From IMG/VR virus record IMGVR_UViG_3300044771_000011, positions 1-43,925 of that record: 43,925 nucleotides of DNA, one strand, 5' to 3'. The notes under the pieces were generated by a model. It saw only the letters and a list, made by a program, of their open reading frames with translations, made no database searches and had not been told where the DNA came from. The DNA is from a virus. A program made the translations under genes and the position numbers. Below are positions 128 to 42,866 of the stretch, piece by piece (position 1 is the first letter of the stretch; each line of letters begins with the position of its first letter).

Positions 128-656
128 CACCGAAGTCGTAGAGGTGACAACTACACCGGAAACAAGTATAGAAACAGAAAGTACTAATGACCAAGCAACA
201 GAACCAACAACAACCGAACAACTAGGTGCACCTGAACAATATACCGAATTCACTGTGCCAGAAAATTTCAGCGCACCTATTGACGATTTTAAAACGTGGG
301 CGAAAGAAAATAATATGACACAGGAAAAGGCGCAGTCTACAGTAGATTTCTACACAAATAAGATTGCACCGCAAATGCAAGCGCAGCATGAAGTTAAAGT
401 TGCAGAATGGGTAACAGAAAGCACAACGAAATATGGTAAAGATGGGATTGAAGCGGCCAACAAAGCGTTGAGCCGTTTTTCTACGCCTGAATTTACTGCA
501 TTTCTGCAAGAGACAGGATTAGGAAACTATCACGAGATGATTGGTATTTTCAAGAACATTAATTCAAAAATATCAGAATCAAGTTTCGTTGATTCAAAAA
601 CAACGGAGTCAAAACCAAAAACACTGGGACAAATTATGTACCCAGATATGAAATAG
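93..656 (+). CDS. Putative head scaffolding protein
   Basis: AAGGAGG lies 7 nt upstream of the ATG. Acidic T/E-rich N-terminus. Sits directly upstream of the major capsid gene, as T7 gp9 does. Assignment is positional only. Confidence 0.45.
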   Translation: MPDEITESTQDNTEVVEVTTTPETSIETESTNDQATEPTTTEQLGAPEQYTEFTVPENFSAPIDDFKTWAKENNMTQEKAQSTVDFYTNKIAPQMQAQHEVKVAEWVTESTTKYGKDGIEAANKALSRFSTPEFTAFLQETGLGNYHEMIGIFKNINSKISESSFVDSKTTESKPKTLGQIMYPDMK

Positions 657-18621: not shown

Positions 18622-18733
18622 TTTTTAAACCTCTCGAATTCGACGGGTTTAGATTTGCCACCGACATCAATGTCGGCGACAACCATCCGGGAATATAGGA
18701 CAGTTCAACCGTTCAGTTTTATTTAATAGTTCA

Positions 18734-18773
18734 AAAGCCGTCTGCCTTTAATTAGGTTGACGGCTTTTTTGTT
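18734..18773 (+). terminator. Rho-independent terminator closing the late (virion plus lysis) operon
   Basis: AAAGCCGTC, 16-nt loop, GACGGCTTT, then TTTTGTTT. Confidence 0.7.
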
Positions 18774-18831
18774 TAACTACTTAGTATATGCAATTAACTG
18801 ACAAATTATACTATCGTTTTAAAAATAATTA

Positions 18832-18976
18832 TGTTATAATAAATAAAACACCTAACAACTCTAGTAAAGTCGTTAGGCAAGTTTACCCTCGGTCAGGAGG
18901 GCTAGGTAATTAAGTTACCCGTATTGTAACATACAACCTCCTGCCGAGTCAATAATTTGGTAGGAGGTTTTTTATA
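18832..18976 (+). promoter_or_regulatory. Extended -10 promoter plus a roughly 130-nt structured leader with mutually exclusive terminator and antiterminator helices
   Basis: Promoter TGTTATAAT at 18832-18840. Hairpins at 18851-18877, 18886-18901 and 18905-18919. Terminator pairs 18935-18948 with 18956-18969, followed by a T-run. Alternative helix pairs 18888-18900 with 18937-18948. Confidence 0.5.
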
Positions 18977-19396
18977 TTGAAAGAAGTAAATGTATTTAAA
19001 AACAAGACTATGGTTGATACTAGGGATGATTTAAGGATAATTTATTTTTTAATCAAGAAAGATAAGGTTGTATATGTTGGTCAATCAAACGTTGGATTAT
19101 CTAGGATTTATCAACATGTGGTTGCAAATAAAAAGGATTTTGATTCGTTTAGTTATATTAAAGTTAATAATGATGAAGACTTAGACCTATTAGAAGCTGA
19201 TTACATTATAAAGTTTGACCCTATTTATAACCTTAAAATACACAGTAATAAATATTATAAATCATTAGATTCAATAAAGAAAATATTAAACATTGGCAAA
19301 AATGATTTAAATAAAATTATCAGACACAAAGAAATAAAGCCTGTGTTTTCTGGGGTATATGATATAAGAGATTTTCCTTGTGAGGTTGAATTATGA
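18977..19396 (+). CDS. GIY-YIG domain protein with a C-terminal HTH-like tail
   Basis: RIIYFLIKKDKVVYVGQSNVGLSRIYQH...LLEADYIIKFDPIYN keeps the Y, Y-x-G, R, E and N positions of GIY-YIG nucleases. TTG start lies 8 nt after AGGAGG. Confidence 0.5.
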   Translation: MKEVNVFKNKTMVDTRDDLRIIYFLIKKDKVVYVGQSNVGLSRIYQHVVANKKDFDSFSYIKVNNDEDLDLLEADYIIKFDPIYNLKIHSNKYYKSLDSIKKILNIGKNDLNKIIRHKEIKPVFSGVYDIRDFPCEVEL

Positions 19397-20199
19397 TTAA
19401 ACAAGGAAGTAAATTATTGTTAGACGAACAGCCATTAGTAGTATTGCCACAATTAGCAAAATTAATAGGGTTAAACGAAGCTATAATTGTTCAGCAAATT
19501 CATTATTGGAATGAAATAAATAAAAAAAATAACAATAATTTTAGAGATGGATATCATTGGACTTTTAATTCTTATCAACAATGGATAGAACAATTTCCTT
19601 TTTGGTCAGAAAAAACAATTAAAAGAACAATAACCGGATTAGAGAACATTGGAATAATAGTAAGTGGTAATTATAACAAGATGAAAATAGACAGAACAAA
19701 ATGGTATAGAATTGATGAGAAAATGCTTGAAAAGCTATGTAAAACACCAAAAGGTCAAAATGACCCGATCATAAGGTCAAGTTGTCCCGATCATAAGGTC
19801 AAGTTGTCCCCGCCAATACCAGAGACTAATTCAAAGATTAATTCAAAGAATAATATTAATGCGTCATCGCCAACGAATGACGGTTGTGGATATGTGGATA
19901 ACTTTACGGAGGATGGACAAATAGTATACGACTACTTTATTGGAAAATATTTTCTGACAATGGGAAGTCAACACCCATCTGTTAATCAAAGTACCGTTAA
20001 CAGCATTAACAAAATAATGGAAGATGAATATATAACCGATCCAGAATTTGATAATGAACTATCAATTGATATTAATGCAATGATAGATATGATTGATTGG
20101 TATTTTGATAGTAATAATCCTTTGTACGGTGACAGAAGAATATACCACTTTCTAAGTCCAATGATATTGAAGAATCTGTATAATAAAGTTGCACGTTGA
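19393..20199 (+). CDS. Replication initiator / replisome-organiser-like winged-helix protein carrying its own iterons
   Basis: The N-terminus LVVLPQLAKLIGLNEAIIVQQIHYW...FPFWSEKTIKRTITGLENIGII...RTKWYRID is typical of Firmicute phage/plasmid initiators. Tandem 22-bp repeats lie inside the gene. Confidence 0.5.
   Translation: MIKQGSKLLLDEQPLVVLPQLAKLIGLNEAIIVQQIHYWNEINKKNNNNFRDGYHWTFNSYQQWIEQFPFWSEKTIKRTITGLENIGIIVSGNYNKMKIDRTKWYRIDEKMLEKLCKTPKGQNDPIIRSSCPDHKVKLSPPIPETNSKINSKNNINASSPTNDGCGYVDNFTEDGQIVYDYFIGKYFLTMGSQHPSVNQSTVNSINKIMEDEYITDPEFDNELSIDINAMIDMIDWYFDSNNPLYGDRRIYHFLSPMILKNLYNKVAR
19764..19807 (+). repeat. Two perfect tandem 22-bp direct repeats (iterons, candidate origin), plus a degenerate copy at 19742-19763
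   Basis: CCCGATCATAAGGTCAAGTTGT occurs twice in tandem. The 22-bp period is not a multiple of 3, so the same DNA is read in two frames (DPIIRSS / PDHKVKL). Confidence 0.8.
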
Positions 20200-20299
20200 C
20201 AACAACAATCCAACAATATAAAGGGGTACTAAAAAAGGGTTCTATGATTAAGACGCACCATTCTTGCGTAATATTATTACTAATAAGGAGAGTTGTACC

Positions 20300-20602
20300 A
20301 TGAAAAAATATTACGGACTAAGCCAATCAGCAAAACAGAAGGCGTTAGATTTTATTGATTTGTTACAAGAAAAATTTCCAAGAACATTTCCGAAAAAACC
20401 AGACTCAAAAGTACCATTGATGATTGGAATTCATGAACAATTATTGCTAATTAAAGACGAATTAGGCGTTGAAGAAAAGACAATTATAAATGCTATGAAG
20501 TTATGGTGTAAAGGTGCTAGATATTATACTGTTTTATCTGTTGCGGGTGTTCCAAGGTTAAATTTAAATGGGGAACAGGTAGGTTTAGTTACAGAAAAAT
20601 AA
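20300..20602 (+). CDS. ProQ/FinO-domain RNA-binding protein
   Basis: LQEKFPRTFP...PLMIGIHEQL...AMKLWCKGARYYTVL...GVPRLNLNGEQVGLVTE aligns by eye with the E. coli ProQ N-terminal FinO domain (ERFPHCF...PLKIGIFQDL...ALRLYTSSWRYL...RVDLDGNPCGEL). AAGGAG SD. Confidence 0.65.
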   Translation: MKKYYGLSQSAKQKALDFIDLLQEKFPRTFPKKPDSKVPLMIGIHEQLLLIKDELGVEEKTIINAMKLWCKGARYYTVLSVAGVPRLNLNGEQVGLVTEK

Positions 20603-24007: not shown

Positions 24008-24494
24008 GATTAAAGAGATAAGGTATAGGGCGGAGAAGGCTACTCCTGCGCCGTGGGATATTGGTGATGGTGGTGAATTGTCGCTCTATGGAGGAGAAAA
24101 CAGCGTAGTCAAGAAAGGTGGGAGAGTTATTGTAAGTCGTGCTATATATGGTAGTGATTTTGATAAGCAAACCTATATTGATGTTGATTTTATCGCCAAC
24201 TCACCAGCAGACATTAACTACCTACTGGCAGCACTCGAAGAGGCACAGGATACAAATGAAAAACTAAAGAAGGATTTTAATAAAGAAGCGGAGTCGTATA
24301 TTAAAAAAATATGGGAATTAGAGTCAAGAGAGCGAGTTTTGCGGGAGGCGTTGGAATTCCATGCTATCAAGGATAACTATCAAGAACAATTAGTATCTAA
24401 TGAGGATGATGGTTGGGATATATATCGTAAACCAACTATTGTTTTAGATAATGGCAAAATTGCCAGGGAAGCACTTGGGCAGGAGGGGAAATAG
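23997..24494 (+). CDS. Ead/Ea22-like protein (paralogue 1)
   Basis: RAEKATPAPWDIG...DVDFIANSPADINYLLAALEEAQ is typical of Ead/Ea22-like phage proteins. Shares three sequence blocks with the next gene. Confidence 0.5.
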   Translation: MQDRIKEIRYRAEKATPAPWDIGDGGELSLYGGENSVVKKGGRVIVSRAIYGSDFDKQTYIDVDFIANSPADINYLLAALEEAQDTNEKLKKDFNKEAESYIKKIWELESRERVLREALEFHAIKDNYQEQLVSNEDDGWDIYRKPTIVLDNGKIAREALGQEGK

Positions 24495-24881
24495 ATGGAT
24501 GAATTAAAAGAGATAAGGGATAGAAACAATAATGCTTTTTATCGTGATGATGAAGAAATAGACTATCTACTGGATGCACTCGAAGAGGCGCAAACTAAAA
24601 TAAAAGAGTTAGAATTAAAAGTTAACTGGCAATATGATGCTGAATCAAATTTGCATTACTGCCCTGTGTGTAATCTTACTAGAAATAAAAGTATTGTTGT
24701 TCAGGTTCAAGAAGGATTAGACAGGGAGCGAGTTTTGCGGGAGGCGTTACAAGAATTCTGCACTAGAGTTGAAAAAGGAGAGATTCGCAGTAGAAAAACC
24801 TATAGCCAATTTATGCAAATATTAAGAGGAGATAAGTCTGAATGTATTGCTAGAGAAGCACTTGGGCAGGAGGGGAAATAG
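24495..24881 (+). CDS. Ea22-like C-terminal paralogue (paralogue 2) with a CxxC insert
   Basis: Shares IDYLLDALEEAQ, RERVLREAL and the identical C-terminus AREALGQEGK with the previous gene. Confidence 0.5.
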   Translation: MDELKEIRDRNNNAFYRDDEEIDYLLDALEEAQTKIKELELKVNWQYDAESNLHYCPVCNLTRNKSIVVQVQEGLDRERVLREALQEFCTRVEKGEIRSRKTYSQFMQILRGDKSECIAREALGQEGK

Positions 24882-41180: not shown

Positions 41181-42866
41181 ATGGATGAAATAAAAAAAAC
41201 AGAAAACGTAAACAGACAACATAAATGTTTATTCGATGAATTTGAAAAGTGGAAACCTTTATTTATGGACGTAAGGGACTTCATTAACCCTTATATTGGA
41301 TACTTTGATGGGGAAGAAGTTAACAGTGGATTAAGAAATGATGAAGAAATGCTTCGCACTATGCCAATTAAATACAGTCACGTCTTGGCTGCGGGTCTTC
41401 AATGGGGTATTACCTCACCTACAAGACCTTGGGTGAAGTTTGCTTTTAAGAATGCTAAAGTAATGCAAAGTTCGGCTGTTCTTACCTGGTTAAATGATGT
41501 TAGTAATACCTGCCTTGACATTTTGTTTAAAGGTGGATTTTATCCTGAGAATCATCAATTTTACTTAGAATTAGGGGTGTTTAATACTGCTGCAATGCTG
41601 ATCGAAGAAGATGACGAGACGGTTATCAACTGTAGAACATTTACAATAGGTGAGTTTGCTATTGGACTTGATAGTAAAAAACGTCCTAATCAATTTGCAA
41701 GAAATATTGAGATGACACCTTTCCAGATTGTAGAAAAATTTGGTATTGATAATGTTCCCGATAATGTTAAGCGTTGTTATGAAGACAAAAATTACAACAA
41801 AACGATATGTGTAAAGCATTTAATTTGTCCTAATTCGTACTATGATGAACAAAAAATAGACAACGATTCAATGAAATTTAGTGATTATTACTGGATGGCA
41901 GGACAAAAACCTGGTGAGTTTCTTAAAAAAGGTGGATTTAATGAATTCCCTGTAATGGTAGAACGATATCAGACAAAGGGTGCTGATGTTTATGGAACTG
42001 GTCCTGGTATATGGTCCCTAGGTGATGCAAAACAAATACAGTTGATGTGGCGTGATATATGTACAGCAGCAGAATTAAGTGTTAAACCTGCTATACAAGC
42101 ACCATCCGACATTATGAAAAATGGTGGAATTAATATGTTGCCTGCGGGGGCTAACTACTATAATCCTACTGGCGGTTCTGATGGTAAAATAACTACCGTA
42201 TTTCAGCCTACGTTAGATATGCGTGCTGCTTCCGAAATTCAAACAGCTATTGAAGAATGTATAAAAGAGCATTTTAATACTAAGGTATTCCAACTATTGT
42301 CTGATATGGAAAAAGGAACAAGAACAGCAAGAGAAGTTATCGAATTATCTTCTGAAAAAATGTCACAAATGGGTCCATTACTTGAAAGGTTACAAACTGG
42401 ATACCTACCGCAAGTCATTAATAGGGTAATCGCAATAGGTTTTAGAGCGGGAGTATTTCCACCACCACCCCCTGAAATTGAAGGAATGGAAATGGATATA
42501 GAATATGTGTCTATCCTCTCGCAAGCGCAGAAACAGTATGTAATTACTCCAATTATGGATACTGTGAATCAGGTTATTGACATGGCATTAAAAACTCAAT
42601 TACCTGAAATATTGGATAAAGTTAACTTTGATGAAGTTACAGATCAACTTGGTGGTTTGAATGGTGTTCCTCCGTCAATTTTATTCTCTGATGAATATGT
42701 TGAATCGGTAAGGAAAGCGCGAGCCCAACAGCAGGCACAAATCAACGCAGTACAACAAGGAATGACCGCAGCGCAGGGAGCTAAAACGTTAGCAGGGGCA
42801 GACACTTCAGGGAATAACGCATTAACCGCCCTTCTTGGTGGTCCGTCAGGTGGTTTACAACAATGA
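41181..42866 (+). CDS. Portal (head-to-tail connector) protein, podovirus type
   Basis: 561 aa, placed after terL. The size and the Q/A-rich C-terminal tail are typical of T7 gp8-like connectors. Confidence 0.75.
   Translation: MDEIKKTENVNRQHKCLFDEFEKWKPLFMDVRDFINPYIGYFDGEEVNSGLRNDEEMLRTMPIKYSHVLAAGLQWGITSPTRPWVKFAFKNAKVMQSSAVLTWLNDVSNTCLDILFKGGFYPENHQFYLELGVFNTAAMLIEEDDETVINCRTFTIGEFAIGLDSKKRPNQFARNIEMTPFQIVEKFGIDNVPDNVKRCYEDKNYNKTICVKHLICPNSYYDEQKIDNDSMKFSDYYWMAGQKPGEFLKKGGFNEFPVMVERYQTKGADVYGTGPGIWSLGDAKQIQLMWRDICTAAELSVKPAIQAPSDIMKNGGINMLPAGANYYNPTGGSDGKITTVFQPTLDMRAASEIQTAIEECIKEHFNTKVFQLLSDMEKGTRTAREVIELSSEKMSQMGPLLERLQTGYLPQVINRVIAIGFRAGVFPPPPPEIEGMEMDIEYVSILSQAQKQYVITPIMDTVNQVIDMALKTQLPEILDKVNFDEVTDQLGGLNGVPPSILFSDEYVESVRKARAQQQAQINAVQQGMTAAQGAKTLAGADTSGNNALTALLGGPSGGLQQ

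Follow-up and report, generated by a model that had tools for sequence, protein, structure and literature searches.

The window considered here, the whole of the IMG/VR virus record IMGVR_UViG_3300044771_000011, is a complete virus record of 43,925 bp with direct terminal repeats, and almost all of its long open reading frames (ORFs) lie on the + strand. Downstream of a lysis cassette with a Peptidase_M15 endolysin it carries a short structured leader, followed by the genes for a 139-aa protein, a replication initiator (Rep) and a ProQ/FinO-domain protein (Table 1). The leader can fold in two mutually exclusive ways, one of which hides the Shine-Dalgarno (SD) sequence of the next gene within a terminator, and a promoter and a terminator are predicted on its opposite strand. 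We propose that the leader is probably a site of transcription attenuation driven by a countertranscript, with occlusion of the SD as a second layer, and that in this way it would set the copy number of a phage-plasmid.

Downstream of its promoter the leader consists of three hairpins (P1, P2 and P3) and an intrinsic terminator, whose 3' arm contains the SD AGGAGG (18962-18967) of the gene that starts with TTG at 18977. The minimum free energy (MFE) of the leader is -45.6 kcal/mol (z = -4.3 against dinucleotide shuffles), and none of 200 shuffles was as good. The terminator was also called independently by a pattern scan, which found 2 sites in 1 kb where 0.5 would be expected. When the window transcript is cut before the 3' arm of the terminator, its MFE fold is the antiterminator helix, formed between the 5' arm of the terminator and an upstream strand, the pre-emptor, and this fold is 11.9 kcal/mol better than the one in which the 5' arm is left unpaired. 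The promoter, P2, P3, the terminator, the AGGAGG, the TTG and the 12-bp alternative helix all lie where the original prediction, made from the letters of the window, had placed them, the terminator stem being counted as 15 bp here.

Related phage contigs and short metagenome contigs yielded five further distinct homologous leaders, which gives six in total (the window, L002, L003, L010, L127 and L130; L007 is a duplicate of L003). Homologues of Rep led to two phage-sized contigs of 42-43 kb that have the same gene order and carry homologous leaders (L002 and L003), a third phage genome with the leader (L010) was found through a DNA pattern of the P3 region in viral contigs, and two more diverged leaders (L127 and L130) came from short contigs. 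No match was obtained by blastn of positions 18700-19400 against phage and plasmid collections, no related locus by a search of viral contigs with the 139-aa protein, and no match (0) by a DNA pattern scan of metagenomes for the leader. Among the other patterns run against viral contigs, that of the SD and T-run returned only L007 plus noise, that of the loop and SD only L007, and that of the terminator nothing new. Finally, nhmmer and a covariance model built from the six leaders were run on 240 further Rep loci (80 each from genomes, metagenomes and viral contigs) and detected no further leader, the sole exception being a weak 21-bit covariance-model match in L126. Since these 240 loci yielded no further members, the leader family must be small, and the element belongs to one small clade.

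Both folds recur throughout this family. Truncated before the 3' arm, all six leaders have the antiterminator as their MFE fold, by 4.6-11.9 kcal/mol over a free 5' arm; the full-length MFE is the terminator fold for five of the six, and when the 5' ~68 nt are blocked, mimicking the binding of an antisense RNA, the terminator forms in every one. The terminator hairpin directly precedes 5-7 U in each leader (six in the window), and in all six loci this arm on the 3' side supplies the next gene with its SD, the start codon following 8-9 nt later. Pairs were counted in a hand-built three-strand alignment, padded with N and fitted to the helices. For the antiterminator, 82.7% of the cells are paired and 7 of 13 pairs have changed on both sides, a level that none of 500 shuffles attained, and sliding the partner strand by 1-3 columns lowers the pairing to 38-65%. 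For the terminator, 95.9% of the cells are paired over the six leaders and three pairs have changed on both sides. The alignment was built by hand because MAFFT/RNAalifold, applied to the unedited leader sequences, placed the terminator wrongly and arrived at an erroneous long-range consensus, which an alignment fitted to the covariance model did not correct.

The matched changes can be followed strand by strand. In the window CUCGG-U-CAGGAGG faces CCUCCUG-CCGAG; the corresponding strands are ACAGCAGGA and UCCUGCUGU in L003, ACUGGUGA-GAG and CUC-U-UUACCAGU in L127, and UGGU-U-GAGAG and CUCUC-ACCA in L130. Where the shared 5' arm has changed, the pre-emptor compensates by Watson-Crick pairing, and the 3' arm mostly by switches between G-U and A-U. 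The original prediction had described the SD-hiding terminator and the antiterminator as mutually exclusive folds, to be checked by folding and by covariation in homologous leaders. That part of its proposal is upheld, each helix recurring with compensatory changes in the five other leaders.

The opposite strand of the leader carries a candidate gene of its own. Between the pre-emptor and the terminator, all six leaders have a near-consensus minus-strand promoter sequence composed of TTGAC[T/A], a spacer of 17-18 nt and TACAAT, TATACT or TATAAT, which in four of them is extended by TG; in the window it has 10 of 12 matches with the TG present. A generic scan independently finds this promoter in the window, L130 and L003 (10-11 of 12 matches), where it is the best result of the scan for the latter two, and the window genome has only 0.17 sites of such quality per kb and strand. 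The loop GTCAA, which is the complement of the -35, is invariant in the terminator loops of all six leaders and the stems around it vary. Likewise, T-12, A-11 and T-7 of the minus-strand -10 are exactly the invariant bases of the linker between P3 and the terminator in all six, and the flanks diverge.

At the other end of the candidate gene, the complement of P1 is the predicted antisense terminator. P1 itself has changed on both sides in six of its nine pairs (0 of 500 shuffles as high), and a hairpin with a U-rich tail ends every one of the six predicted antisense RNAs. These countertranscripts would be 74-79 nt long with two-hairpin folds in each case, and each would begin with a short 5' tail, continue with a stem-loop whose sequence is complementary to P2 and to the pre-emptor, and finish with the terminator stem-loop and the U-rich tail. 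The conserved minus-strand promoter and terminator therefore suggest a discrete antisense RNA that covers the pre-emptor strand. The loop of P2, whose counterpart in the relatives differs in sequence (CCAUC/GAUGG, GCGC/GCGC), is likely to be the target loop for this predicted RNA. A YUNR U-turn motif in the antisense loop was considered as well and was dropped, as it was seen by eye in only four of the six. The antisense promoter and terminator had been missed by the original prediction, as had the plasmid-type nature of the regulated operon.

Table 1. Coordinates of the leader elements, of the predicted antisense gene and of the surrounding features in the window.
Feature	Position	Strand	Basis or remark
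Hairpin at the end of the lysis operon	18733..18768		A runs before, T runs after; inverted repeat I2, 15-nt arms, 87% complementary
Sense (rep-operon) promoter, extended -10 TGTTATAAT	18832..18840	+	predicted transcription start near 18847
Hairpin P1 of the sense leader	18849..18879 (hairpin 18851-18877)		covaries; complement is the predicted antisense terminator
Hairpin P2 (CCCTC-GGTCAG-GAGGG)	18886..18901	+	MFE fold; holds the pre-emptor
Pre-emptor (5' strand of the antiterminator)	18888..18900	+	pairs with 18937-18948, 12 bp, U18893 bulged
Hairpin P3	18905..18919	+	enclosed by the antiterminator helix; predicted antisense start (~18916) in its 3' half
Intrinsic terminator/attenuator	18935..18973	+	stem 18935-18949 x 18955-18969, 15 bp including G-U; U-run to 18973
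Antisense -35, TTGACT	18947..18952	-	in the loop and distal stem of the sense terminator
Antisense extended -10, TGT-TACAAT (minus-strand reading)	18923..18931 (hexamer 18923-18928)	-	scan, TTGACT-18-TACAAT
Predicted countertranscript, ~75 nt	18842..18916 (starts ~18916)	-	inferred from promoter and terminator
Antisense terminator	18879..18849, tail TTTTATTTAT (18848..18839)	-	scan, 14 pairs; complement of P1
First operon gene, 139 aa, TTG start	18977..19396	+	weak GIY-YIG/endonuclease similarity
Rep, replication initiator, 268 aa	19393..20199	+	PHROG matches, named homologues, iterons
ProQ/FinO-domain protein	20264..20602	+	PF04352, E 2e-18

On the sense strand, the TGnTATAAT of the promoter is kept in all six leaders. 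About 25 nt upstream of this -10, the sequence CTGACAAATTATACT at 18798-18812 recurs in L010, L002 and L127 and less clearly in L003 and L130; read in reverse complement it includes TATAAT. Possible roles are those of a second or divergent promoter and of an operator to which a Cop-like repressor would bind.

Several points weigh against our reading of the leader. The full-length MFE fold of L127 keeps the antiterminator, and the terminators of L130 and L003 were not called by the generic scan because their stems are bulged. The pair counts for the antiterminator and terminator come from an alignment fitted to these very helices and so lean towards structure. The six leaders are distinct and yet related, representing perhaps three or four lineages. 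Furthermore, the generic promoter scan returned 5 sites in 1 kb against 4.9 expected, such hexamers being common in AT-rich DNA; a single match therefore means little, and the argument for the antisense promoter rests on its conservation.

Conservation of unpaired bases in a structured leader might instead point to a ligand, and the original prediction had used the label riboswitch, adding that it recognised no known class. The latter agrees with the Rfam covariance scan, which gave no riboswitch or other family match: nowhere in the genome did a family attain its gathering score, and no family of countertranscript RNAs (ctRNAs) appeared over the leader region even at E <= 10 on either strand, the best + strand match there being L10_leader, whose 22.3 bits fall short of the required gathering score of 44. 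As a structured leader that has an expression platform and no Rfam match, the element might in theory belong to a new class of metabolite or ion riboswitch, stabilising P2 or the antiterminator. Here, though, the unpaired bases that do not vary are those of the -35 and -10 hexamers of the opposite-strand promoter and are thereby explained without a ligand pocket, so that the label is not retained. No conserved multi-helix junction is present and a conserved pocket seems unlikely, P3 differs in length and sequence between leader subgroups, the regulated gene encodes a replication initiator rather than a metabolic or transport function, and the element is confined to its one small clade. A riboswitch is very unlikely.

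Since the parts of the leader match the scheme described for pT181 and pIP501 (PMC5703833), we propose countertranscript-driven attenuation as follows. The mRNA of the rep operon would start at the sense promoter, and in the nascent leader the pre-emptor would pair with the 5' arm of the terminator. With the antiterminator formed there would be no terminator, RNA polymerase would read on and the SD would be free. The convergent promoter within the leader, its -35 lying in the terminator loop, would meanwhile make an antisense RNA of ~75 nt, running from ~18916 to 18842, which would end at the complement of P1 and could pair completely with the leader's first ~70 nt, the pre-emptor among them. 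With many copies of the phage-plasmid there would be much antisense RNA, which would bind the nascent leader, probably from the P2 loop, and sequester the pre-emptor. The 15-bp terminator would then form, transcription would stop at the U-run just before the TTG, and in transcripts that escaped termination the SD would be buried. Less Rep would be made and fewer rounds of replication would be initiated.

In the pT181/pIP501 scheme, the ctRNA is complementary to the rep leader. The ribosome binding site (RBS) lies within a terminator-like stem-loop just ahead of the start codon, a pre-emptor holds the 5' arm of this stem-loop, and once the ctRNA binds, the arm is released and the terminator forms (PMC5703833). 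The leader studied here resembles that of pT181 repC (RNAI/RNAII; Novick et al. 1989, per PMC5703833) in its short antisense RNA transcribed from within the rep leader (87 nt there, ~75 nt predicted here), in the competition between a pre-emptor and the terminator 5' arm, and in the RBS-bearing stem-loop immediately upstream of the start. It differs in that there is no sequence or Rfam match on either strand, that Pfam finds no Rep_trans domain in Rep and that the -35 of the antisense promoter sits in the terminator loop. Furthermore, pT181 is a small rolling-circle plasmid whereas the leader described here lies in a tailed phage genome.

The inc18 plasmids pIP501, pAMbeta1 and pSM19035 (RNAIII and CopR) share with the arrangement predicted here an antisense-induced terminator in the leader of the initiator gene, a Gram-positive theta-type replicon and convergent promoters. 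The RNAIII of pIP501 is about 136 nt long, against the ~75 nt predicted here. In pIP501 a cop gene lies upstream, whereas here the lysis cassette and a terminator lie upstream with no cop gene, and Pfam shows no PriCT_1 domain in Rep. The pIP501 leader is also considerably longer, at ~320 nt (PMC5703833) compared with ~125 nt here. The predicted mechanism is therefore like that of pT181, pIP501 and pAMbeta1, yet the replicon is placed by its sequence outside those families.

A third comparison bears on where the predicted antisense RNA would act. The RNAI of pSK41/pSK1 (RepA_N) is an antisense RNA of ~83 nt with two stem-loops that induces an RBS-sequestering stem-loop, in plasmids whose origin lies inside rep; no RepA_N domain was found in the Rep of the window. 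If the RNA predicted here acted in the same style, mainly on translation, the hairpin at 18935-18969 would bury the SD and termination would be minor. The SD does lie in the 3' arm in all six leaders, and pSK41-type control works in this manner with an origin inside rep (PMC5703833), as the iterons described below suggest for the window. However, a U-run is needless for occlusion of the SD, whereas 5-7 U directly follow the hairpin in every leader and the whole scores as an intrinsic terminator. We regard a mainly translational mode as improbable, and as a variant of the same model rather than a separate one; termination and SD occlusion are not exclusive.

Small immunity RNAs of phages and satellites that pair with a nascent transcript, leading to termination or blocked expression, are known from the CI RNA of P4, the CA RNA of N15 and the c4 RNAs of P1 and P7. 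The CI, CA and c4 RNAs arise by processing of the sense transcript, and the genes under their control are those for immunity or antirepressors; they are not known to act as true countertranscripts on a rep gene.

The gene for the ProQ/FinO-domain protein invites the question of whether a protein takes part. The slot after rep is variable, being occupied by ProQ/FinO in the window and L003, by ParA in L002, L010 and L127 (in L127 with small ORFs between rep and ParA) and by a Rha-family regulator in L130. Since ProQ/FinO adjoins rep in only two of the six leader loci, it cannot be an obligatory trigger, and it was rejected as such. The original prediction had listed a metabolite, a protein such as ProQ/FinO and an antisense RNA as possible triggers; the last is favoured by the minus-strand promoter and terminator conserved in all six leaders, and the second, in its obligatory form, falls away.

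A wider version of the protein explanation holds that the folds are real but that they are triggered by Rep (as autoregulation), ProQ/FinO or a host factor, with the minus-strand promoter silent or acting only through transcriptional interference. The ProQ/FinO gene does follow rep in the window and L003, and convergent promoters ~85 nt apart could interfere with one another. Four loci lack ProQ/FinO beside rep, which would still leave Rep or a host protein as a possible trigger, and a conserved single-stranded protein-binding repeat was not seen in the leaders. Moreover, the minus-strand terminator and its covariation would have no role if no discrete antisense RNA were made. We therefore consider a protein trigger to have little probability.

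FinO-family proteins are known to serve antisense RNAs of replication control, as in FopA-Inc/repZ, PcnR on IncI plasmids and FinO-RepX (PMC7491321, PMC8053102, PMC8136791, PMC9977716). As in those systems, a FinO-domain gene is found here on the same mobile element as a (predicted) initiator-controlling antisense RNA, and the terminator hairpin with a 3' tail that FinO domains recognise is also present in this predicted RNA. Those systems, in contrast, are proteobacterial and act on translation or on a pseudoknot, not through attenuation, whereas here the gene accompanies two of six leaders and binding is hypothetical. So far as published, the FinO/ProQ family extends over four classes of Proteobacteria (PMC9977716). 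By analogy, it is possible that the ProQ/FinO protein is a non-obligatory helper chaperone of the predicted antisense RNA in the style of FopA-Inc or PcnR. A stronger form of this idea, in which the protein would be a dedicated countertranscript chaperone that binds the terminator hairpin and speeds its pairing with the leader, and in which the diverged leader loops would set incompatibility or superinfection specificities, seems rather unlikely to us. If true, it would represent a FinO-antisense pair acting via transcription attenuation on a phage-plasmid with a Bacillota-type replicon.

The unit from promoter to terminator (~18847-18973) could also be read as a gene in its own right, encoding a trans-acting small RNA of ~125 nt, with read-through into rep incidental. 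It has a strong promoter, a strong terminator and no ORF, and an SD-like strand, TTGGGCAGGAGG, which resembles the pre-emptor, stands before two consecutive genes elsewhere in the window (24475-24486 and 24862-24873; starts at 24495 and 24882). In that search, however, 3% of shuffles also gave three matches, and the copies of TTGGGCAGGAGG are probably a shared SD context rather than a target. The anti-SD strand would be buried in the terminated form, and the 3' arm of the terminator is the SD of the next gene in all six loci, so that the element is built as a leader. A trans-acting RNA is for these reasons very unlikely.

The 268-aa protein encoded by the operon is assigned as the plasmid-type replication initiator of the regulated replicon, because of the iterons within its gene and a plasmid-borne full-length homologue. 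It matches PHROG families named DnaD-like helicase loader (E 2e-50) and replication initiation protein (E 4e-33), and homologues in Bacillus and Sporosarcina are named 'replication protein' in their sources. Pfam found no domain in it at E <= 0.01, and neither NCBIfam nor a profile search of the PDB was informative. Inside rep, 2.7 tandem copies of a 22-bp iteron-like repeat at 19751-19810 suggest that the origin is placed within the gene. The full-length homologue, 44% identical, is found on a circular Bacillus weihaiensis plasmid of 16.4 kb (L291, NZ_CP016021.1), where, at 1267-1510, a consensus promoter and a small helix-turn-helix gene precede rep instead of an attenuator. The same initiator subfamily thus appears to be under different control on that plasmid. 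In L126, whose Rep homologue is 51% identical, the leader at 315-490 is mostly unrelated in sequence and has the same layout as the six leaders, with a + promoter at 315-343, a convergent - promoter at 459..431 and a - terminator at 390..354, next to the sense start. The antisense-controlled design may therefore extend beyond the leader sequence family.

Four of the six loci have no gene between leader and rep, and there it is rep itself that starts from the leader's SD and the TTG after it (ATG in L127). Only in the window and in L002 (3585-4004) does the 139-aa gene lie between them, and it has the appearance of a mobile insertion of endonuclease type that captured the start site of the leader. 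The ATG of rep (19393) overlaps the stop of this gene, which suggests translational coupling.

The replicon module appears to be set apart from its surroundings. The hairpin at the end of the lysis operon is predicted to insulate it from late transcription and as such marks a context boundary. Elsewhere the genome encodes an Ant antirepressor and, on the minus strand, a CI-like repressor, and it has a second replication module, of phage type, made up of Gam, exonuclease, SSB, replisome organizer and DnaB. A search of the complete window genome for tyrosine and serine recombinases (PF00589, PF00239) gave no match, and integrases of these two families are also absent from two related near-complete genomes that bear the leader. 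There is no ParA in the window; in the relatives L002, L010 and L127 it adjoins rep. With a repressor and an antirepressor, no integration module, a Rep with iterons and ParA in relatives, the phage has at the gene level the features of a phage-plasmid, and we class it as an integrase-less temperate phage with a plasmid-type replicon and a predicted episomal lifestyle. The leader would accordingly control a plasmid-type replicon that sits where the integration module usually sits. The portal protein (41181-42866) is ~33% identical to the head-tail connectors of podoviruses of Gram-negative hosts, e.g. Pseudomonas phage AF, so that a Gram-negative-type portal contrasts with a Bacillota-type replicon in the same genome.

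Apart from P1, N15 and elements like them, little has been described of how phage-plasmids set their copy number, and a full-text literature search for cases in which an antisense RNA or countertranscript controls the replication of a phage-plasmid or plasmid prophage found no paper describing one. If the proposed mechanism holds, copy-number feedback should need no more than a 130-nt element with convergent promoters, and the same element would probably also make related prophages incompatible. Through the neighbouring ProQ/FinO gene it can be asked whether chaperones of the FinO type take part in antisense control in phages whose replicon is of Bacillota type. Since orthogonal RNA attenuators have been engineered from pT181 (PMC3753616), the six natural variants, with their co-varied sets of pre-emptor, terminator and antisense RNA, could likewise serve as orthogonal RNA attenuators.

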